Origin: Candidatus Thorarchaeota archaeon
GTDB lineage: Archaea > Asgardarchaeota > Thorarchaeia > Thorarchaeales > Thorarchaeaceae
Direction: 5' to 3'
DNA: 64,000 bases
NCBI GenBank assembly: GCA_011364905.1
Contig: RDNZ01000009.1
Span: forward strand, 13,761-77,760
Shown here piece after piece: positions 1,687 through 33,997 of the stretch (position 1 is the stretch's first letter; every line of letters begins with the position of its first letter). The notes beneath the pieces were generated by a model. It had not been told where the DNA came from and made no database searches. It saw nothing but the letters and a program-made list of their open reading frames with translations. Position numbers and translations under genes: made by a program.

Positions 1687-2841
1687 TCATTTGAGGTTGG
1701 TATACCTTGCTCCGCTTCCAGTATTAAGGAAGACCACATCTTCATTGAAATCAATTCTACCAGCTTCAATCAAATTACGTAACCCACAGATGCCTACCGC
1801 AGCCTCTGGGCATATGTCTAAACCTTCTAGTTTGGCAACCATCCTTCTGGTTGGCTCAATTTCCTGGTCTGCCACAGCGACTGCGCTTCCCCCTGAATTC
1901 CTAATTGCTTGAAGGATTAATCTGCCAGCAAACGGATTGGGTACTCTTAATCCCAATGCCTCAGTTTCTCCATTCACCCACTCCTCGATATCATCATCAC
2001 CTCTTTCAATGGCTCTCACTATTGGTGCGCAACCTCCGCTCTGTGCGGCATACATTCGTGGACGCTCGGAACCAATGAGTCCAATGGTTTCAAGTTCATC
2101 GAAAGCTTTCCAAATCCCGATGATTGCAGTTCCTCCTCCCGTTGGGCAGATTATTGCGTCAGGAACCGACCACCCCATCTGTTCACAGATCTCAAATCCC
2201 AGTGTCTTTTTTCCCTCAACTCGATAGGGTTCCTTCGTGGTTGAAAGATCCGTCCAATTTTCATTTTGATCTCTCATTACTTTGCCCGCATCTGAAATTG
2301 TGCCTTTCACACGAGTTGTGATCGCACCAAACAGCTCACATAGTTGAAAGAATGATTCAGGCGTATCTTCCGGCATGAAGATGTGAGCTTTCAAGGCTGC
2401 AGCAGCTGCATATGCACATGTGGATACCGCCGCATTCCCAGCTGAGGGGAGGGCAAACTCTTCTGCTCCTAACTCCATATGTCGAGAAACAGTCGCACAG
2501 AGACCTCTGTCCTTGAAACTTGAGGTTGGATTTTGAGACTCGTCTTTGATTCGGAGTATTTGAAGACCAATGTGTTTCCCTAACCGTCTAGAGAGTAATA
2601 GTGGTGTCCATCCCTCACCAAGGCTTACTATGCACGAAGGTGACTTCACGGGGAGAAGTTGTGAGTACCTCCACATCGAATTCACATCTGAGGGAAACTC
2701 GTTGTTTGCCAGAGCTTCTCTGACGCCTATCAGGTCATAAACGGCAAACAAGGGCGAACCGCAAACACAATATGTTGCCATTGAGTCAGCTGAGTGCTTT
2801 CTCCTACACTGCGGACATTCGAGATGTGAGATGTGTGACAT
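1687..2841 (-). CDS. thrC: Threonine synthase (PLP-dependent, fold type II)
   Basis: N-terminal Cys motif, SLGEGWTPL, NPTSSFKDRG (PLP lysine), SAGNAA, EGKKTLGFEI, PTGGGT, NTGSG. Confidence 0.9.
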   Translation of the reverse strand: MSHISHLECPQCRRKHSADSMATYCVCGSPLFAVYDLIGVREALANNEFPSDVNSMWRYSQLLPVKSPSCIVSLGEGWTPLLLSRRLGKHIGLQILRIKDESQNPTSSFKDRGLCATVSRHMELGAEEFALPSAGNAAVSTCAYAAAAALKAHIFMPEDTPESFFQLCELFGAITTRVKGTISDAGKVMRDQNENWTDLSTTKEPYRVEGKKTLGFEICEQMGWSVPDAIICPTGGGTAIIGIWKAFDELETIGLIGSERPRMYAAQSGGCAPIVRAIERGDDDIEEWVNGETEALGLRVPNPFAGRLILQAIRNSGGSAVAVADQEIEPTRRMVAKLEGLDICPEAAVGICGLRNLIEAGRIDFNEDVVFLNTGSGARYTNLK

Positions 2842-21778: not shown

Positions 21779-24457
21779 ATGTCTGATAGAAGAGATGCGC
21801 AAGCACCAAGCACGGTTGAAGCCATTCGAATGGCATCTGCATCCGTATTAGGGACATCAACAGGGCTTGGTTATCCGGTTGGAAGCGCAATTGGCGCTGG
21901 TACAATGCTTGAACAGCATTCTGAGTCTGTTTCCATGAACATCGTACCATTGATCTTCAATATCCGTGATACTCTAATGTCATCAGAAGGATTGGAACTT
22001 CTCTCAATAGAATATGACCTTGATAGAACTCCGGGTCCGGAAGTACTTCCTGAACAACTGGTCATAGCTGGAGGTGTCGAAGGCGGAGTCGGTTCTCATG
22101 TCTGTGTCCTAAGCTGGGAGAAAGGAGTTGTTGATCCTTTCAAGATCAATGATTACATGAAGGTCCTGTCCAAAAAGATTGCAGACATAGAAAGTGCTGT
22201 GATTAACAATCAGCTGAACTATGAATTTGAAGGTCTCCCAGTCATGAGTAATTTTGCACACCGCCTAAACAGTGTCTTGTTTGTCGACATGCTTGACCGT
22301 CGATTTCAGGGGTCTTGGGATTCCTTGCAGGTAAAGCCGGATCATGTCGATATTGACCTAATTGCCAAAATGGCTGTCACTGATGATTTTACACTCCAGC
22401 CTCCGGGGCTCAGAGTTGTTGGACGAAAGACCCTTGAGTTCAAGCTTCCAAACGAGCCAGATGAACGACTTGTCGCTCACTTTAAACGACGTATTTTGAC
22501 ACCGAGTGCCATAGAAACTTTGACCAAGGTTGTTCCCGAAACCGGTCAAGCTCTTCTGCAGGAACTCAACTATTACGCCTATGCTACGGAGGAGTCAGAA
22601 ATTGTAGATGGCGTTGTAAGTGCACTAGGCTCTTTTCTCGGTCAGACTATGGTGTCACTAGCTGATATCGACTCTCTCAAACCTCGCATTAACGAGTTTG
22701 TAAAGATACTTGAAGAAACCGTTAACGAACTTGAGCATATAGTTGAGAACCACCTTGGTTCAGGGAAATCACTCACGATTGATAACCACAGGAGTGAACT
22801 GATTTCTGCTGTTTCATCACACAGTGAACTGTCCTCTGGCATAAAGAACACTCTTGCCATGGGGATAGTTGAACGATTAATGAATTCAGTTTCTCGAGAG
22901 TTCAGTGGACACGGGGAAATCCGTGCTTGGGAACTGAAAGGAACCCTGAGGTATGCTATTGCCTATGCCAAAAGAGTCTCTCAATATTTCTCGAGGGAGC
23001 TAAACCAATACCTTGTTACGAATGCCGCAAAGAAGGCATTCTTCACTGCTCTTCAAGATTTTAAAAATGAAACAGTCGGGGGGGACATTAGTTCCACTGA
23101 CATGACATTATTCGATCTCTTCTATGCTGAAGTCCAAGCTCAGCTTAACGCAGCCTTCGCCAAGGAAGCATTTGAGGGATCTGAGTATCGCGACTTCAAA
23201 CAATTAATGGATGTCGTGACTCGACAACTGATAGAATCGTTCAAGACAATCGACATATGGGAGCTTATTGGGTTTGAGAAAGTAGCTGAAATTGCTGGAT
23301 CTGAGATTCGACAGAAATATTCGATTCCAGAGAGCGAAGAACTAACAGAGCATGGTAAAGCTCTGATAGTCCTTCTTGACAACTTCCAGGAACTGGTAGC
23401 TGATGTCATTCCTGATGTTGCTGACACTCTTCTTTCAAAACCATTAATCCGTCGAATTATCGACAAGATGTTATCAGAACAGACTAGTCTAATACCTGAA
23501 CTTGAAGCCGCAGTTGAAGGTGCAGGAGAGCGCCCTGATGAATGGAAAAAAGAAGCAATGGCTTGGGTTGCGAGCTTCAAAAGTGGCCTGAACGAATCGA
23601 TGACAAGTTCTCAAGCTCTTCTTGCTTTATTGAATTCAATTCATGAGATTGTTGGAGAAACAGTGACCCCGAGTGCTATGGTGGATCGCGCCAAGTTTGA
23701 AGCTGACCAGCGAGAGCAGATGTTCCTCGCAAAGGTACAGGAGTGGGAGGAGGTATGTCGGGTTCTTGAGGGTGAAAACGAAGCCATTAGGGCCCACAAT
23801 GCAAAACGCGAGGAACTACTCACCGAGAAGACTCAGCAGTATGAAGCAAAAATGCGTGAATATGAAACTGCACTCAGGGACTATATGGAAAAACTGGAGA
23901 AGTACAAAGCTGAGCAAGCTGAGCTGGCTGCCCAAGCCGCACAAGCTGCTGAAGTTGCAGAATCACCAATTCCGTCCACTCCGCCACCAGTTGTTACATC
24001 ATCTCCTCCTCCAGTAGAACCTTCAAAACCTTCGCCCATAGATGCAGAGTTGGCTGAGATTCGGGCGCAATACCCCGTGAAAGAAGAAAAACCACTGCCT
24101 CCTAAACCAGAACCTGATCCCTCACTCAAGTTCTTTGTTGAATTGCGAGACCTGTTGCAGGGTAGACTCGATCAATTGAGGGAACGAGAGAAAGACATGG
24201 AAACGACATTTGCACGAAGGGTTCTAAGACTTCAAGCTGAAGGAATTGGTGCAGCTTCAATGATTGGACTCGATATAGGTGATGAGTTCGTGGAATACCT
24301 CATGGGTTCAAAAGTTCGGAGTCTTGGAAAGTTACTTCCTCGGGTTGCACGCATGTATCTCAGAGACCCACAAGAAGAGGGATTACTGTACCTTGTAACA
24401 TTTGAACACCATGCAGGCGAGTTGACTGTATCAGTAGGGAACACATACTTGAGGTGA
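21779..24457 (+). CDS. Large hypothetical protein (892 aa): possible N-terminal roadblock/longin-like domain, helical body, coiled coil, Pro-rich segment
   Basis: Long intact ORF with an SD-like GGGAGAGG upstream. No enzyme motifs recognised. Confidence 0.8.
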   Translation: MSDRRDAQAPSTVEAIRMASASVLGTSTGLGYPVGSAIGAGTMLEQHSESVSMNIVPLIFNIRDTLMSSEGLELLSIEYDLDRTPGPEVLPEQLVIAGGVEGGVGSHVCVLSWEKGVVDPFKINDYMKVLSKKIADIESAVINNQLNYEFEGLPVMSNFAHRLNSVLFVDMLDRRFQGSWDSLQVKPDHVDIDLIAKMAVTDDFTLQPPGLRVVGRKTLEFKLPNEPDERLVAHFKRRILTPSAIETLTKVVPETGQALLQELNYYAYATEESEIVDGVVSALGSFLGQTMVSLADIDSLKPRINEFVKILEETVNELEHIVENHLGSGKSLTIDNHRSELISAVSSHSELSSGIKNTLAMGIVERLMNSVSREFSGHGEIRAWELKGTLRYAIAYAKRVSQYFSRELNQYLVTNAAKKAFFTALQDFKNETVGGDISSTDMTLFDLFYAEVQAQLNAAFAKEAFEGSEYRDFKQLMDVVTRQLIESFKTIDIWELIGFEKVAEIAGSEIRQKYSIPESEELTEHGKALIVLLDNFQELVADVIPDVADTLLSKPLIRRIIDKMLSEQTSLIPELEAAVEGAGERPDEWKKEAMAWVASFKSGLNESMTSSQALLALLNSIHEIVGETVTPSAMVDRAKFEADQREQMFLAKVQEWEEVCRVLEGENEAIRAHNAKREELLTEKTQQYEAKMREYETALRDYMEKLEKYKAEQAELAAQAAQAAEVAESPIPSTPPPVVTSSPPPVEPSKPSPIDAELAEIRAQYPVKEEKPLPPKPEPDPSLKFFVELRDLLQGRLDQLREREKDMETTFARRVLRLQAEGIGAASMIGLDIGDEFVEYLMGSKVRSLGKLLPRVARMYLRDPQEEGLLYLVTFEHHAGELTVSVGNTYLR

Positions 24458-24463
24458 TTGACA

Positions 24464-26911
24464 ATGGCTAGCTCCTGGGTACTAAAGACAAGACAAATGA
24501 GTGAAGCTGGAAAAGAAATTCTGCTTCGAGAGGCTTTAGCTTCGCACATGCGCAGCACTAGAGACCGTCAGTTATTTCAGGAACTTCTCAAGGAAAACAG
24601 GCCCCTTAAAGATATGTTCTCATTCTTTGCAGCCTTCTATTTACACAGTTATCAGGGTGTTCGTCTCCTAACGCCTTCTATGGAGCCTGGCGCGGGTAGT
24701 GAGATGAAAGATGAGCTTGGCGAAGAAGAACGGCATCAGCTTGAGCTTGAGGTTCGACAGCTTTTTTCTGAGAAACAACATCAAGAGGTTGAAGTGGCGA
24801 AACTTGCTAGTGATTTAACAATTCGTTTCATCGATGAACTAGGAGGGTCCGACAAGTCGCCACAACATAAAGAGAAAATTATTGATATGATACGGCAGAC
24901 TCTGAGCCAGATTCCTACGACATACACACCAAATCATGACATTGACTTGATGCTTGAAGTCACTGGTTGGGGCGAGAACTGGCGCAATGAGTTATACGTT
25001 AAGGCCTCTGGACTGAAAGAGAGTGCGCTCTCTCTAAGGGAGGAGCTACTTAGAGAGCACCCCTACGAAGTCCCAGAAACATCCGTACTTCGTATGGGCC
25101 TTGAAACCATACTTGGACGTGTGGAGTATGTTCAAGGACGACTTGCCGAAGCTCTCATTCCAGCAAATAGCTGGGATGCAATCGTTTCTGCAGTTTCGGA
25201 AAGATTTTGCAGACCAATGGGCTCTCTCAAAGGACTCAGATATGCTCATGAGATACGTCTTGCTATGCTAGAAGCACTCATAGCTGAGTTTGATACCCCC
25301 ACAACTTTAGAGGGCTTTGAGTCCCTGTTGGGCCGCGTAGTGACCACAAAAGCGGCGAAAATTCTAGTGGAAGATCCTGACCACATACTCGATACACTCT
25401 CTAGCTTTCTCAACGTGAGTGCAGATGAGATCAAAGCTCAACTTCGACGTAAAGGCATCAGTGATCTATCAGTTATTGGGCCAGGCTTAGAGGCGTTGAC
25501 CGAAGACTCTGTTTCCGACTCATCCAAGCCAGAAATCAGTAAAGAAGAGTTTGAGATGCTGGAGCGTTCTCTAAAGACTCTCGAAAAGATCGAAAGAACT
25601 CTTGATGGTCCAGTAAAAGGGATGCTTCGCTCAAAGGGTCTTCGAGCAACAGAACTTGAAAAAATAGACATCAATATGTTCACAAAGGATCGTGCAAAAC
25701 TTGTTGGCATTGAAGTCGAAGTTCTAGAGGCCATAAAGGCAAAGTTGCGGGTTCCACCGCCAGAGGAAATAGCACGACTTCTAAAGACTAGAGAGCAAGT
25801 TCAAAGTGGCGCATTGAGTTCACTGGGCATCTCGTCAGCGAGAGATTTCAGCCAACAAAGAGCTGAGGAGGAAACTGCTGTAAGTTTACGCCTTGACCTC
25901 ATCTGGCACTTCACTATAGGCATACTCACGAATCTAACTCGCGTTGTTGAGTCCTACATTCGGTCAAAACAAGACTTGTTACGTATCAAAGCACTGCTGA
26001 AAAGTATCTATGAAGACACAGAGATGGTTCTACAATTTCTCCGGGAGGAAATACTAATCGACTTGGCATCCATGCGAATCTACGAACTCAAAGTCCTTTA
26101 CCCCGAATTAGATGCTAAGACAATATGTACTTGGATGCATGCCAGGCTCTCTAGTAAAGGTATGAATACTGCAGGAGACGACCTCGAAACCTCAACAAGC
26201 CCAGTCTTTGAAGGCATCGTTGACAAATCGTTAGACATGTCAAATTTGGAGTATGATAATTATGCGATTGCTTTTGACATTATGCAACGTTTCTTGAAAC
26301 AAGAACGGCTAGAGAAGCTGGCAAAGGAAGAATATGCGCTTGAAGCTAAAGAAAAAGAGAAGCGTAGGATTGAGGAAAAGAAGGAAGGTATCGATGTTTT
26401 GATGTACCTTCATAATAAGGCTCGGACTGTCTTTCGAGCAATCAGTCGGGTTGGCACTAAGGGTCTCGAATGGACCCATAATGACACAACCAAGTGTACC
26501 AATCTTCTTTCTTACTATATCAAGACCAATAGAGGAAGAAAAATCTGTTCTGCATGCGGATCCCTACCGAAGGATGGAAAATGCGCTCAACACGGATCGA
26601 ACTTCATCAAGGATGCATCAGATATGGACAATCTGTCTATCTTTATCATGCAGAGTCTTTTTGAAATCAAAGAAGGATTGATCGGAGAAGGTAGAGGGGT
26701 TGAGCCAATGTCATGGGACAAAGCGAAATCCACTGTTGAGCGAGAGATTGGAGTTCTGAAAAGAAGAGGAAAACTGACATCCAAGACTAACCTAAAGGAA
26801 CTGATGCCCGGAGAGATCAATTACATTGTTGGTCCTGCAATGTCCGCTATTGTTGCTAAGTACTTCAACGAGTCATTGGGTTACGCCGCACGTCGGGCTG
26901 AAATAGCGTAG
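24464..26911 (+). CDS. Large helical hypothetical protein with C-terminal CxxC-x8-CxxH Zn finger
   Basis: Coupled to the upstream gene: GAGGTGA SD overlaps its stop. Motif CSACGSLPKDGKCAQHG. Confidence 0.8.
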   Translation: MASSWVLKTRQMSEAGKEILLREALASHMRSTRDRQLFQELLKENRPLKDMFSFFAAFYLHSYQGVRLLTPSMEPGAGSEMKDELGEEERHQLELEVRQLFSEKQHQEVEVAKLASDLTIRFIDELGGSDKSPQHKEKIIDMIRQTLSQIPTTYTPNHDIDLMLEVTGWGENWRNELYVKASGLKESALSLREELLREHPYEVPETSVLRMGLETILGRVEYVQGRLAEALIPANSWDAIVSAVSERFCRPMGSLKGLRYAHEIRLAMLEALIAEFDTPTTLEGFESLLGRVVTTKAAKILVEDPDHILDTLSSFLNVSADEIKAQLRRKGISDLSVIGPGLEALTEDSVSDSSKPEISKEEFEMLERSLKTLEKIERTLDGPVKGMLRSKGLRATELEKIDINMFTKDRAKLVGIEVEVLEAIKAKLRVPPPEEIARLLKTREQVQSGALSSLGISSARDFSQQRAEEETAVSLRLDLIWHFTIGILTNLTRVVESYIRSKQDLLRIKALLKSIYEDTEMVLQFLREEILIDLASMRIYELKVLYPELDAKTICTWMHARLSSKGMNTAGDDLETSTSPVFEGIVDKSLDMSNLEYDNYAIAFDIMQRFLKQERLEKLAKEEYALEAKEKEKRRIEEKKEGIDVLMYLHNKARTVFRAISRVGTKGLEWTHNDTTKCTNLLSYYIKTNRGRKICSACGSLPKDGKCAQHGSNFIKDASDMDNLSIFIMQSLFEIKEGLIGEGRGVEPMSWDKAKSTVEREIGVLKRRGKLTSKTNLKELMPGEINYIVGPAMSAIVAKYFNESLGYAARRAEIA

Positions 26912-27357: not shown

Positions 27358-28755
27358 TTGAAGAAGTTCAAACCAGAAGGAGTAATGCCTGCCCTAGTAA
27401 CACCATTCACGCGAGATGGCGACATCAATGAGGAGGGCTTTAAACAAGTCATTGACTACACCATTGAGAAAGGCGCGACTGGTGTGGTAGCTCTAGGTAC
27501 GACTGGTGAGTTCTCATACTTGAGGACAGAAGAACGGAAGAAGATACTAAGACTCACTGAGAAGTATGTAGATGGAAGAGTACCTATCATTGCAGGAACA
27601 GGTCAAAACAGCACTCGTGCGACCTTGGCACTCACACAGTTCGCCGCAGATTTGGGGTGTGATGCGGCACTCGTAATCTCGCCGTACTATCTACGACCAA
27701 CGGACAAAGGGTACTATGAGCACTATGAGGAAATTGCTACCAAGGGAAATATCCCAGTTATCCTATACAATATACCACAATGCACCCTTGGAGTTCTTAA
27801 TTCGAATGTCGTCGAGGACCTAGCGTTTTTGGATAATATTGTTGGCATCAAAGACAGTAGCGGAAGTGTGCCCTACATTCTTGAACTGATTCAAAAGCTC
27901 AAGGGGAAAATGGAGGTCATTATTGGAGCCGATGAGTGCTTCCTCTCTGCGATAGTGGCTGGCTCAAAAGCTGCGATCATGGCTTCAGCGAATGTGATTC
28001 CACATATTTGGCTTGAAATCATGAGATTGGCGCAAAGCGGGAAAGTCGAGGAAGCCGCTGAGCTCCAGCGTACTACTCAAACTTTTGCCCGAATGGTTTT
28101 GAAGTATGGGGCTGCTCCGCCGGTTAAAGCAGCATTGAAAATGATAGGTTTGGACGCAGGTCGTGCCAGAATGCCCCTTAATAGCGGCGGGACTCTTACA
28201 CCTGAGATGAAAGAAGAGATACGAATTGAGTTAGAGAAGATGGGTGTCATTCCGAAATTGGAACATCCTCCGGTTCAGACAAATATCGATGTGATTGAGT
28301 TCCTTGCTAGTCAGGGGTTAATGCTAGAGCAGACTCCGGACATTTCTGTCAGTAGCGCTGCAAACGAGAAGGTGTCCGTTGGTGTTGCCGTTGGCTCTAA
28401 GAAGGGGCCAGTTGGTCGGACATTTGTAAGACTGCTCACAGTACCGAAGGTTGGCCATGAAGCTCTGACCGTCATTCTTGAGCCAAACCTGGCTGTTAAG
28501 CCTAGTAGTCTTATGCTTCCAGTACAGAAAATACAGTCCATGCGCCAAGCATCTTTGTTCTATGGGCCGGTTCAGTCTGGTGCTGCCAAAGCAATTTCAT
28601 CGTTCTTGGAAGCGAATAAGATACCAGAAAAATCGGTTGTTGATGATTTGATCATTCTAACTCTAGATATTGACTTGAATTCGAGCGACCGCCGCGAGAT
28701 TACAGCTGCGGCTCAACAAGCTGTTGAAGAAGCGCTACATGGAATTTGGGGGTGA
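27358..28755 (+). CDS. DapA/NAL-family class I aldolase fused to a degenerate Fae domain (paralogue A)
   Basis: ALVTPF, GTTGEF, LYNIP, GIKDSSG. C-terminal GPVG..F...GHEALTVILEPNLAVKPSSLMLP...FYGPVQSGAAKA is Fae-like but lacks AHIDL. Confidence 0.88.
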   Translation: MKKFKPEGVMPALVTPFTRDGDINEEGFKQVIDYTIEKGATGVVALGTTGEFSYLRTEERKKILRLTEKYVDGRVPIIAGTGQNSTRATLALTQFAADLGCDAALVISPYYLRPTDKGYYEHYEEIATKGNIPVILYNIPQCTLGVLNSNVVEDLAFLDNIVGIKDSSGSVPYILELIQKLKGKMEVIIGADECFLSAIVAGSKAAIMASANVIPHIWLEIMRLAQSGKVEEAAELQRTTQTFARMVLKYGAAPPVKAALKMIGLDAGRARMPLNSGGTLTPEMKEEIRIELEKMGVIPKLEHPPVQTNIDVIEFLASQGLMLEQTPDISVSSAANEKVSVGVAVGSKKGPVGRTFVRLLTVPKVGHEALTVILEPNLAVKPSSLMLPVQKIQSMRQASLFYGPVQSGAAKAISSFLEANKIPEKSVVDDLIILTLDIDLNSSDRREITAAAQQAVEEALHGIWG

Positions 28756-28760
28756 ATCAA

Positions 28761-30236
28761 GTGACTAGCGAATTTCGATTCAAAGGCGTCTATCCCGCTC
28801 TTGTGACACCATTTGATAAGAATGGGGTTAATGAAAAGCAATATCGCAATCTCATAGATTTCACGATTAAAAATGGCGCTACTGGGATAGTCCCTTGCGG
28901 AACTACAGGTGAGTTCACGAGCATGCGATTCGAGGAAAAAGAAGAGGCTATCCGTATCGCGTGTAAAGCCGCAAAGGGTAGAGTTCCAGTGCTTGCGGGA
29001 ACAGGTCATGCGTATACCAACGATGCTATCAAACTAACTCGCAGAGCCGCTGAGTTTGGAGCCGCTGCGGCTCTCGTGGTCACTCCTTATTTCATGAAGC
29101 CATCCGAGAAGGAGATCTACGAACATTTCGAAAAAATCGCAAATAATAGTGATATTCCAATTATCGTTTACAACATCCCTCAGGTGACTGGTGTTCCTTT
29201 ACATTGGACTTTGATTGATGGTCTCAGAGAAATTGATGGAATTGTGGGCCTAAAAGATTCAAGTGGTGATCTAGTCAATTTAACAACGATTCTTGTACGT
29301 AAGCCTGATAATTTCCAAGTCATGGTCGGTCACGACGAGGTGGCCTTGCCAGCTTTGGCATCAGGCTGCAATGGTGCTATCCTTGCAAGCGCCAATGTTT
29401 TTCCTGACCGGTATATCAGGATGCAGAGTGCGCTTGCTACAGGCGATCTAAAAGAAGCTCGTATCATTCAGCGAAGCATTCAGAAAATTGTACGCATCTT
29501 TGTGAATAATGGTGGTGGTCTAGCCGTTAAGGCTGCACTAAACATGATGGGTGTACCAGTAGGCAATGCAAGACATCCACTTCTCATCGGAGATAGCCTC
29601 GGATATGAAATGCATGATGAGATTCGGACTTGTCTTGAAGACCTCCAAATGATTCCACGTGGATTTGTCACTTTCAAGATGGGCAACCGATATATTGAGA
29701 GTGAGACCTATCCCAAAGCAGTAGGCATGGTCCCGGATGTCGTTGAAGACTTGACTCTTTTGCATGGAGAAGCCCTCTTTGGCGGAGGCAATGATGTGGC
29801 ACATGTGGATTTGATCATGGGCTTGCGTTCTGGTCCTATGAGTGATGCATTGAAGACTGCTGGAAAAGTGACTGAAGGCTTTCACCAATCGAACATAATC
29901 AAAGAACTTGAGCTGACCACTATATTTGCACCCACTGTAACAATCACATCAGAAAGACACCGAAAGATGGTCTATGAAGTAGCTCAACGTGCAGTCGAAG
30001 ACGCTGTAAGACGGACAATCACTGACAATATTATCCCCGAGGAACTTGTTCGAGACCTTGTAATTGCAGCGAATGTTTTTGTTCATCCAAGTGCTGTAAA
30101 CAAAACTCGCGTTCATATTAACAACTTCATCGCAGTCCGACATGCCCTTCGAAGAGCCATTGAGGGACGTCAGAGTGTGGAGGAAATAATTGCTAGAAAG
30201 GACTCGGCGAGACATCCATTTGCCTATAATCCCTAG
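28761..30236 (+). CDS. DapA/NAL-family class I aldolase fused to a formaldehyde-activating enzyme (Fae) domain (paralogue B)
   Basis: GTTGEF, YNIP, GLKDSSG. C-terminal HGEALFGGGNDVAHVDLIMG...VFVHPSA...ARHPF matches Fae. Confidence 0.9.
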   Translation: MTSEFRFKGVYPALVTPFDKNGVNEKQYRNLIDFTIKNGATGIVPCGTTGEFTSMRFEEKEEAIRIACKAAKGRVPVLAGTGHAYTNDAIKLTRRAAEFGAAAALVVTPYFMKPSEKEIYEHFEKIANNSDIPIIVYNIPQVTGVPLHWTLIDGLREIDGIVGLKDSSGDLVNLTTILVRKPDNFQVMVGHDEVALPALASGCNGAILASANVFPDRYIRMQSALATGDLKEARIIQRSIQKIVRIFVNNGGGLAVKAALNMMGVPVGNARHPLLIGDSLGYEMHDEIRTCLEDLQMIPRGFVTFKMGNRYIESETYPKAVGMVPDVVEDLTLLHGEALFGGGNDVAHVDLIMGLRSGPMSDALKTAGKVTEGFHQSNIIKELELTTIFAPTVTITSERHRKMVYEVAQRAVEDAVRRTITDNIIPEELVRDLVIAANVFVHPSAVNKTRVHINNFIAVRHALRRAIEGRQSVEEIIARKDSARHPFAYNP

Positions 30237-32754: not shown

Positions 32755-32869
32755 CCATGCAGTTGGAGATCCTGCTAGAACGCATCCCTTGTTTTTCAAA
32801 CTGACATTGTGTCTAATCAGTAACGTTCATAGAGGAGAATGCGTTTGAGAGCCGTTGGAGTTAGTCCAA

Positions 32870-33997
32870 ATGAATCAATCTCGAGTTCTTTCTCTTTTGA
32901 AAGAATTGGTTTCTACAAACTCAGAGAACCCTCCCGGACACGAGGCCGATGTTGCGAAAATTCTCCGTGATCATATGGACGCCCATGGAATATCGTGTGC
33001 ATCTATTGGTCCTTCTGAGCGTCCAAATCTCATCTTCTCAAGTCATGATCAACAAAAAGGAGACCTGATCATACACGGTCACATGGACACAGTGCCAGCT
33101 GGTCCTCCTGAAAACTGGACTCACGATCCCTTCTCCTCCAAAATTGTTGACGGAAGACTATACGGACGAGGGGCCTGTGACATGAAAGGCTCTTTAGCGG
33201 CGCTTGCAGAAACATTGATTCTTTACTCTCAGGAGCAGCACAACAAACCTCTCTTGTTCTTGGCTACATCAGATGAAGAGAGTGGCTGCTCAGGAGCTGA
33301 AAGAGTAGCTGCGAGCAGTCATCTTAATGGTGTCCGGTTTGGAGTTTGCGCCGAACCCACTGGTCTGCAGGTTCTCATTGGTGAAAAGGGAATGTTCTGG
33401 TCAAAAGTTGTGGCAAAAGGCAAAGCAGCGCACGGCTCAAGACCTACAGAAGGCATCAATGCGATACAGGTATGTATGGATGCGATTCGAGTGCTCACGA
33501 ATAAGCAGTATGCATTTGATCACCAAGAAGTCCTTGGAGTCCCTACCTTCAATATTGGTGTCATTCAAGGAGGAATAAAGATCAATGTAGTGCCTGACAG
33601 TTGCGAGGCATTGCTGGATATGCGTACAGTCATTGGCCAAGATCCAGAATCACTCCTGAAAGAGATGAATGATCGGCTTGTTCTAGAGGGGCTTTCTGAT
33701 AGGGTCAAAGTTGAATATGTTCATGGCAAGCCCGCTGTTCTAACACCTATGGACTCCGAGATAGTCAGCGTAGCTAAATCGACTGTCGAACGCATAACAA
33801 GTGAATCTACCACATTAGGTGCAGCAACCTATGGGACGGATTGCTCAGTATTACAACCAAAAGTTGGTATACAAAACGTGATCTGCGGTCCCGGTTCCAT
33901 AGAGCAGGCCCACCAGCCTGACGAATTTATCTCACTTGATGAACTCTACCAATCAATTGACATCTACCTAGAAATAGCTCGGTATTTCGACAAGTAA
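32870..33997 (+). CDS. M20 metallopeptidase (ArgE/DapE family)
   Basis: HGHMDTVP, GRGACDMKG, DEE, AEPT, GKAAHGS, AHQPDE. Confidence 0.92.
   Translation: MNQSRVLSLLKELVSTNSENPPGHEADVAKILRDHMDAHGISCASIGPSERPNLIFSSHDQQKGDLIIHGHMDTVPAGPPENWTHDPFSSKIVDGRLYGRGACDMKGSLAALAETLILYSQEQHNKPLLFLATSDEESGCSGAERVAASSHLNGVRFGVCAEPTGLQVLIGEKGMFWSKVVAKGKAAHGSRPTEGINAIQVCMDAIRVLTNKQYAFDHQEVLGVPTFNIGVIQGGIKINVVPDSCEALLDMRTVIGQDPESLLKEMNDRLVLEGLSDRVKVEYVHGKPAVLTPMDSEIVSVAKSTVERITSESTTLGAATYGTDCSVLQPKVGIQNVICGPGSIEQAHQPDEFISLDELYQSIDIYLEIARYFDK

Follow-up and report, generated by a model that had tools for sequence, protein, structure and literature searches.

Why does one archaeal locus hold, end to end, two copies of the same gene fusion, neither of which carries the whole motif set of its second domain? 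The locus lies in 64,000 nucleotides of contig RDNZ01000009.1 from a Candidatus Thorarchaeota archaeon (hereafter the window, meaning the whole stretch of DNA analysed), in which two same-strand open reading frames (ORFs; 27286/27358-28755 and 28746/28761-30236 in the ORF list of the window) each encode an aldolase barrel of the DHDPS family followed by a domain of the Fae family. Gene A (27358..28755, + strand) was delimited from its ORF, its Pfam and NCBIfam matches and the lengths of its orthologues, and gene B (28761..30236, + strand; 491 amino acids, aa, from GTG 28761) from its ORF and its Pfam and NCBIfam matches. An earlier note on this DNA had described two adjacent aldolase-Fae fusion genes 5 nt apart, and both ORFs are indeed found there, GTG 28761 yielding the 5-nt gap; their products share 34% identity. 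Since each Fae domain has lost parts that the other keeps, A and B are probably two subunits of one enzyme, descended from a single-gene aldolase-Fae fusion of Asgard archaea that use tetrahydromethanopterin (H4MPT), an interpretation that we hold with moderate confidence.

Searches with the Pfam models found both domains in both proteins, far above thresholds, and the E-values of the matches (1e-26 to 1e-77) rule out chance. The barrel of A (27373..28224, + strand; Pfam DHDPS 257.7 bits) was further defined by alignment to E. coli DapA and by a residue census among orthologues, and that of B (28779..29585, + strand; 259 bits) by the same census. The Fae-like domain of A (28360..28740, + strand; Pfam Fae 93.8 bits) covers profile positions 9-135 only, and that of B (29766..30221, + strand; 102.4 bits) positions 2-158. 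Both exceed the Pfam threshold of 27 and align with Methylobacterium Fae (Protein Data Bank, PDB, entry 1y5y; E 9.2e-10 for A and 2.9e-19 for B), but score 81.7 bits (A) and 112.9 bits (B) against the equivalog cut-off of 118.05 of TIGR03126.

The alignment with 1y5y bears out what the earlier note had read in the two chains. Protein A retains GHEAL..LEPNL.VKP and FYGPVQSG and is without GEAL and without the His and Asp of AHIDL, His22 being replaced by Ser and Asp24 by Gly; in addition, VFVHP is changed to LDIDL, there is nothing beyond about profile position 135, and some 25 residues at the C-terminus, comprising the ARHPF arm, are deleted. Protein B retains GEAL..GNDVAHVDL with the catalytic His, VFVHP and the C-terminal ARHPF, but not the PNL..KP segment: four residues of the EPNL loop (P-N-L and the next residue) are deleted, and FGPAQ has become Y(E/D)VAQ, that is, G-P has given way to (E/D)-V. 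The whole set of Fae motifs is thus present in neither chain, and between them A and B keep all the signature motifs.

These losses are not peculiar to the source genome. The residue census covered 124 A-type clusters (64-95% identity, mostly 456-465 aa), 114 B-type clusters (65-96% identity, mostly 491-492 aa) and 20 other fusions assigned at first to the single-copy class, of which four in fact have the B-type deletion; related genomes are not independent samples, and all counts of conservation and co-occurrence given here are to be read accordingly. Among the A-type clusters, L-E-P-N-L, the terminal Pro and Y-G-P-V-Q-x-G show little or no variation, GEAL is lacking throughout, His22 is Ser, Thr or Ala in 124/124, Asp24 is Gly or Ser in 121/124, FVHP is replaced by D-I-D-L, and the C-terminal arm is absent from all 124. 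Conversely, B-type clusters keep the G-E of GEAL (114/114), A-H-x-D (113-114), F-V-H (114) and R-H-P (113), with the catalytic His and ARHPF each in 113/114, and the four-residue deletion of the EPNL loop is present in every one of the 114. The complementary degeneration of the Fae motifs is therefore an invariant feature of both paralogues, each sampled with more than 100 orthologues, which argues for strong purifying selection on each half of Fae, and the same complementary losses recur in tandem pairs of two further Asgard families.

What could such a division serve? In Fae, methylene-H4MPT is reportedly bound in a cleft between adjacent subunits, where His22 is said to be the acid catalyst and the C-terminal arm and Gln88 are said to be responsive to binding. 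Supposing that the motifs kept by A are on one wall of this cleft and those kept by B on the opposite one, a full Fae site would be rebuilt only by contact between A and B, and the unused face of each chain would be free to decay. After tandem duplication, work would have been divided between the copies: a complete aldolase site would come from A, as would the EPNL.VKP loop and the GPxQ motif that form one wall of the cleft; the other wall, made up of GEAL, the catalytic His, FVHP and the C-terminal arm, would come from B, the barrel of which decays. We infer from the pattern of conserved residues that A and B co-assemble into a heteromer with a composite Fae site, and this reading predicts activity only with both chains present.

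The two genes also travel together. In the Thorarchaeota family of the window, 42 of 46 genomes contain both A and B, and in 41 of these 42 the pair is co-linear, on one contig and one strand, about 1.4 kb apart and with A upstream; the single exception is a pair split across contig ends, such that A and B are never apart in complete assemblies. Single occurrence of either paralogue, which the earlier note had named as a finding that would speak against its proposal, was not seen in the 46 genomes checked. In most of the paired loci retrieved (L034-L039), A precedes B and the genes overlap or are separated by no more than 6 nt; in L036 the gap is 36 nt as called.

The origin of the pair can be approached through other Asgard archaea, for which we scanned 201 genomes with the Pfam Fae model and retrieved 20 loci. 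An ordinary Fae-Hps protein (about 400 aa and about 240 bits) occurs in many families. The DHDPS-Fae fusion occurs in ten, beside Fae-Hps or in its place, and most of these ten have it as one gene of 494-511 aa, the Fae domain being complete and scoring above the equivalog cut-off (191-210 bits). The tandem A-then-B pair was seen in the Thorarchaeota family and two others. The single-copy fusions (of Lokiarchaeota type and from other Asgards, labelled DapA or Fae) look ancestor-like, being 40-48% identical to the pair and sharing with it the domain architecture and the replacement of Arg138 in the barrel (see below), and they keep both sets of Fae motifs in one gene, whereas the pair has them split over two. 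In a maximum-likelihood tree, the B-types of the three families are united in a single clade (support 98) that branches from within the single-copy forms, and the A-types group together near the long outgroup branch; the topology fits one old duplication, the root being uncertain. Because other Asgard families have one undivided fusion with intact Fae, the A/B pair appears to be a subfunctionalised duplicate of such a gene, and the undivided, ancestor-like form, which the earlier note did not mention, is widespread in other Asgard archaea.

The same facts could be accounted for by independent homomers, B being a working aldolase-Fae or only a Fae, and A an aldolase with a non-catalytic Fae remnant that serves folding or assembly, with no composite site at all. 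Interaction is not required of tandem paralogues, B does keep the catalytic His and the C-terminal arm, and the barrel of A is fully conserved, so A could act alone as an aldolase. Invariance of LEPNL and YGPVQSG throughout the A-type clusters is, however, unexpected for a remnant, exactly that loop is the one deleted in all B-type clusters, the genes are co-linear in nearly all genomes and never apart in complete ones, and the single-copy relatives keep both motif sets. We consequently regard separate homomers as quite unlikely, and continue with A and B as subunits of one enzyme.

Which reaction would the barrels of this enzyme catalyse? GTTGE, YNIP and KDSSG are present in both proteins, in agreement with the earlier note, and A and B both carry the signature of class I pyruvate aldolases of the NAL/DHDPS superfamily (GxTGE, Tyr133 and the Schiff-base Lys), the residues of which are invariant in A orthologues. 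The closest sequence family is DapA/DHDPS (EC 4.3.3.7; PF00701, TIGR00674), with which the fold is shared and which is 32% identical over the alignment in the case of E. coli DapA; GTTGE, Tyr133, the Schiff-base Lys161 and a score above the equivalog cut-off are common to DapA and the pair. Unlike DapA, A and B have the extra Fae domain, of about 190 residues including the linker, and B has Phe at position 107. In A, the catalytic set Thr44/Tyr133/Tyr107'/Lys161 of DHDPS is complete: Thr44, Thr45, Tyr133 and Lys161 (E. coli DapA numbering) are kept in 124/124 orthologues and Tyr107 in 111/124.

The database label of both proteins is DapA, since they pass the cut-off of TIGR00674 (229.3 bits for A and 241.6 bits for B against 206.15) and their best PDB matches are all DHDPS (down to E 9e-55); an ArgE/DapE-family deacylase encoded 2.6 kb downstream could likewise be taken to favour a true DapA (4-hydroxy-tetrahydrodipicolinate synthase) that serves lysine synthesis and has merely acquired a domain. 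The residues that define the substrate contradict this annotation. Arg138 is reportedly essential in binding aspartate semialdehyde, and this position is never Arg in 261 fusions, being Cys in A and Val in B; across the fusions Asp187 is replaced by His, Trp or Ala and Asn248 by Ala or Gly, such that all three residues are replaced in every member. The pathway is wanting too, for DapB (TIGR00036) scores above its cut-off in none of 46 genomes of the window family, and the Asd/ArgC C-terminal domain occurs in at most 8 of the 46 and is absent from the source genome, a 3.08-Mb Thorarchaeota-type assembly that is 81% complete and within whose completeness all genome-level absences reported here are to be read. 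The replaced Arg138, Asp187 and Asn248 together with the missing DapB rule out a DapA role for A and B, leaving the annotated function with the faintest probability, and they uphold the earlier note's view that barrels reading YNIPQ(C/V)T, without Arg, are not DHDPS. The third DHDPS-family gene of the genome (G000:C36:108361-109254, or L005:1471-2364; 298 aa, 130 bits) has GNTGE, His at 107 and Lys at 138 and, being without the DapA residues, is another non-DapA member. Several hundred Asgard proteins bear the DapA label, and metabolic reconstructions that credit lysine synthesis on the strength of such a gene are probably wrong.

The two barrels differ in their fate. That of B keeps GTTGE (Thr44, Thr45), Tyr133 and Lys161 in the source genome, but Tyr107 is Phe in 113/114 orthologues, and in one Thorarchaeota genus (6/114 B clusters) the Schiff-base Lys161 is Ser and GTTGE is ASLGE. 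In two of these B genes, L036:7787-9235 (genome G116) and L037:9046-10524 (genome G155), the Fae motifs are intact. Judged from these substitutions, the aldolase barrel of B is itself decaying, unlike that of A, a point absent from the earlier note, and in the genus concerned it looks like a dead enzyme retained as a scaffold. In DHDPS, Tyr107 reaches into the active site of the partner across a tight dimer. With such a crossing, the substitutions in B would be compatible with A-A and B-B tight dimers that join into a hetero-oligomer, A being the catalytic aldolase and B mainly the donor of the Fae wall that bears His.

The barrel would then be a pyruvate-dependent class I (Schiff-base) aldolase, derived from DapA by loss of the residues that bind aspartate semialdehyde. 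Loss of polar and charged acceptor residues from the pocket, together with the fused Fae, points to a small aldehyde such as formaldehyde as the acceptor. The Fae part may handle this aldehyde partner, most likely formaldehyde, either by condensing it with H4MPT or by releasing it from methylene-H4MPT. By analogy with Fae-Hps, and considering the shape of the substituted pocket, pyruvate and formaldehyde or methylene-H4MPT could be combined into 4-hydroxy-2-oxobutanoate (HOB), with possible channelling between the aldolase and Fae sites; the net reaction would be pyruvate + methylene-H4MPT + H2O = HOB + H4MPT.

The metabolic background of the host agrees with part of this scheme. The source genome contains Mch (426.6 bits) and Mtd (367.9 bits), indicating that it uses H4MPT, as had been supposed, and A and B hold its sole Fae domains; no Hps was found when it was looked for in this genome. 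The presence of Mch and Mtd without Hps ties the Fae function here to the barrels of A and B. A sink for formaldehyde produced by Hps is ruled out as their role, there being no Hps in the genome, and so is replacement of PanB (ketopantoate hydroxymethyltransferase), which is present in 37/43 genomes of the family, the source genome included, and in most Asgard families with the fusion.

A role in building homoserine, in which the pair would replace Hom and feed threonine and methionine synthesis, is unsupported in the window family, since no homoserine-using step is recognisable there and Hom and Asd are rare too: Hom was found in 3/46 genomes and MetX in 1/46, ThrB was above its cut-off in 0/46, and ThrB2-type kinases gave matches below cut-off only (about 300 bits against 446), which probably correspond to the related phosphoglycerate mutase ApgM. 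Of the homoserine-pathway genes tested, ThrC-like genes alone are common in the family. Many genomes of the phylum contain both Hom and the fusion. A catabolic role in capturing formaldehyde would be just as plausible, and neither the loci nor the searches for pathway genes revealed a link of A and B to a particular catabolic or biosynthetic pathway. As a side observation, up to three groups of ThrC-like paralogues exist in the window family despite the largely missing Hom, Asd, ThrB and MetX; one such gene (window 1711-2676, - strand) scores 155 bits, slightly below the cut-off, and several genomes of the family retain it some 25-30 kb away from the pair.

Several points weigh against one enzyme with a composite Fae site and an HOB-forming barrel. 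The Fae of M. extorquens is a free-standing homopentamer, and a pentamer cannot alternate A and B, so the oligomer formed by these proteins must differ from known Fae. Both Fae domains remain below the TIGR03126 cut-off, for which reason their Fae activity is putative. Tight dimers made of one A and one B would place the Phe107 of B in the active site of A, and the argument for co-assembly itself is drawn from conservation and from the reported inter-subunit position of the Fae site. Furthermore, no source or sink for HOB was found when it was looked for via Hom, Asd/ArgC, ThrB, ThrB2-type kinases and MetX, and the neighbouring genes in the window family hold no metabolic clue.

Some of these points would suit a further alternative, namely that the Fae-like domains are regulatory or oligomerisation modules that bind a pterin or another ligand, attached to an aldolase for another substrate (e.g. 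a 2-keto-3-deoxy sugar acid or 4-hydroxy-2-oxoglutarate). Both domains do fall under the equivalog cut-off, the DHDPS family contains many such aldolases (NCBIfam matches), and no formaldehyde-linked pathway was found around the genes. Yet B invariably keeps GEAL, the catalytic His and the C-terminal arm, the single-copy orthologues have a bona fide Fae domain (191-210 bits), the fusion is found only in Asgard families with signatures of Fae and H4MPT, and an acceptor pocket stripped of polar and charged residues would suit a small aldehyde. Overall, modules of this kind appear unlikely to us, and we retain a catalytic Fae shared by A and B.

The most specific form of the proposal goes further, in that the A/B complex and the single-copy fusion would be a natural methylene-H4MPT:pyruvate hydroxymethyltransferase making HOB from pyruvate and the C1 unit of the Wood-Ljungdahl pathway, with the enzyme of Thorarchaeota as an obligate heteromer whose pterin site is formed by two half-degenerate chains. 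We put this forward tentatively, as a possibility of rather low probability. If true, it would provide a native reaction of C1 assimilation or C4 building that is so far known only in engineered 'homoserine cycle' strains.

Among known systems, archaeal Fae-Hps (5,6,7,8-tetrahydromethanopterin hydro-lyase / 3-hexulose-6-phosphate synthase; NF009833) resembles the pair in that Fae is joined to an enzyme forming or cleaving a C-C bond with formaldehyde and the host uses H4MPT, and the likely shared logic is that formaldehyde never leaves the enzyme. The partner of Fae is, however, an Hps of the OMP (orotidine monophosphate)-decarboxylase fold in Fae-Hps and a Schiff-base pyruvate aldolase of the DHDPS family here; Fae is N-terminal in the former and C-terminal in the latter; and only in the pair is the fusion duplicated and the Fae site split over two chains. 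The match to NF009833 is limited to the Fae part (70 and 85 bits, the cut-off being 274), so that A and B are not members of Fae-Hps. The Fae of M. extorquens (EC 4.2.1.147; 1Y5Y/1Y60; PF08714, TIGR03126) aligns with both domains, each of which, in comparison, has about half of its motifs and a score below the equivalog cut-off.

The chemistry proposed for A and B is that of the HOB aldolase step in an engineered homoserine cycle, in which pyruvate and formaldehyde are joined into HOB, termed a non-native metabolite, by the promiscuous E. coli RhmA (PMC8879981). Whereas RhmA, a class II metal aldolase, does so by promiscuity within that engineered pathway, A and B are proposed, putatively, to form a dedicated class I, H4MPT-coupled enzyme. 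A full-text literature search found no paper on this fusion within the searchable collection. The domains and the logic of Fae fusions are known, and what would be new is the aldolase partner and the split site. If correct, the pair would be the second natural case, after Fae-Hps, of Fae joined to a formaldehyde-handling C-C lyase, and possibly the first aldolase dedicated to pyruvate and formaldehyde, for whose reaction synthetic methylotrophy now borrows promiscuous enzymes. It also illustrates cleanly how duplicated genes can lose parts reciprocally, here at a site presumed to lie between subunits.

The single-copy fusions differ from the pair in their genomic setting as well, for they are usually in an operon with one of two genes, c1 (315 aa) or c4 (428 aa), lying directly behind it with gaps of about 16-26 nt or an overlap; no homologue of either gene was found when both were searched for in the source genome. 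The gene c1 (L027:6304-7248; also in L021, L022, L028, L029, L034 and L035) is a neighbour of fusions in five Asgard families, L035 having a c1-A-B operon. No Pfam family covers it, and the protein atlas places it with faint U32-like bacterial proteins. The AlphaFold2 (AF2) model of its product is a TIM barrel (mean predicted local distance difference test score, pLDDT, 79), the nearest structures of which are class II fructose-bisphosphate (FBP)/tagatose-bisphosphate/YdjI aldolases at a template modelling (TM) score of about 0.5, a weak lead. The gene c4 (L024:5837-7120; also in L023, L025, L026, L030 and L032) is directly upstream of single-copy fusions and co-oriented with them, overlapping the fusion by 4 nt in L025. 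No family, PDB relative or atlas match was found for it, and its AF2 model is poor and unusable (pLDDT 52), with a pattern of beta-alpha repeats after a helical N-terminus. Comparison of c1 with c4 by hhalign (probability 9%) gave no demonstrable relation. In one family, a CitG-family gene (L028:7234-8292; Pfam 202 bits, far below the citrate and malonate equivalog cut-offs) adjoins the single-copy fusion; CitG homologues are linked to gene islands of H4MPT biosynthesis.

In Thorarchaeota, the pair is flanked by genes for giant orphan proteins, CutA, a membrane protein, a GNAT acetyltransferase, an M20 deacylase, an AlaX-like protein and a sugar nucleotidyltransferase. Just upstream of the pair are two translationally coupled giant ORFs (window 21779-26911, + strand; 892 and 817 aa) without obvious enzyme domains, whose synteny with the pair holds throughout the family (clusters c15 and c7). 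The M20 deacylase of the ArgE/DapE family (window 32855-33997, + strand; TIGR01910 240 bits) is retained on the downstream side of the pair, 2-3 genes away, throughout the family, and is also found near the single fusion of another family (L027 and L028).

Finally, the reading of gene boundaries allows some choice. From TTG 27358, gene A encodes 465 aa, and from the alternative ATG 27286, at the opening of the ORF, 489 aa; TTG 27358 is most likely the start, 465 aa being the commonest length of its homologues, and an ATTTATA box lies about 35 nt upstream of it. Gene A ends with TGA 28753-28755. Direct reading of the A/B junction (28746..28760, + strand) yields three candidate starts for gene B, namely TTG 28746, GTG 28752 (in a GTGA overlap with the stop of A) and GTG 28761, which leaves the 5-nt gap and is preceded, 5 nt ahead, by the Shine-Dalgarno-like run GGGGGTGA at 28748-28755. 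Whichever start of B applies, the two genes are coupled.

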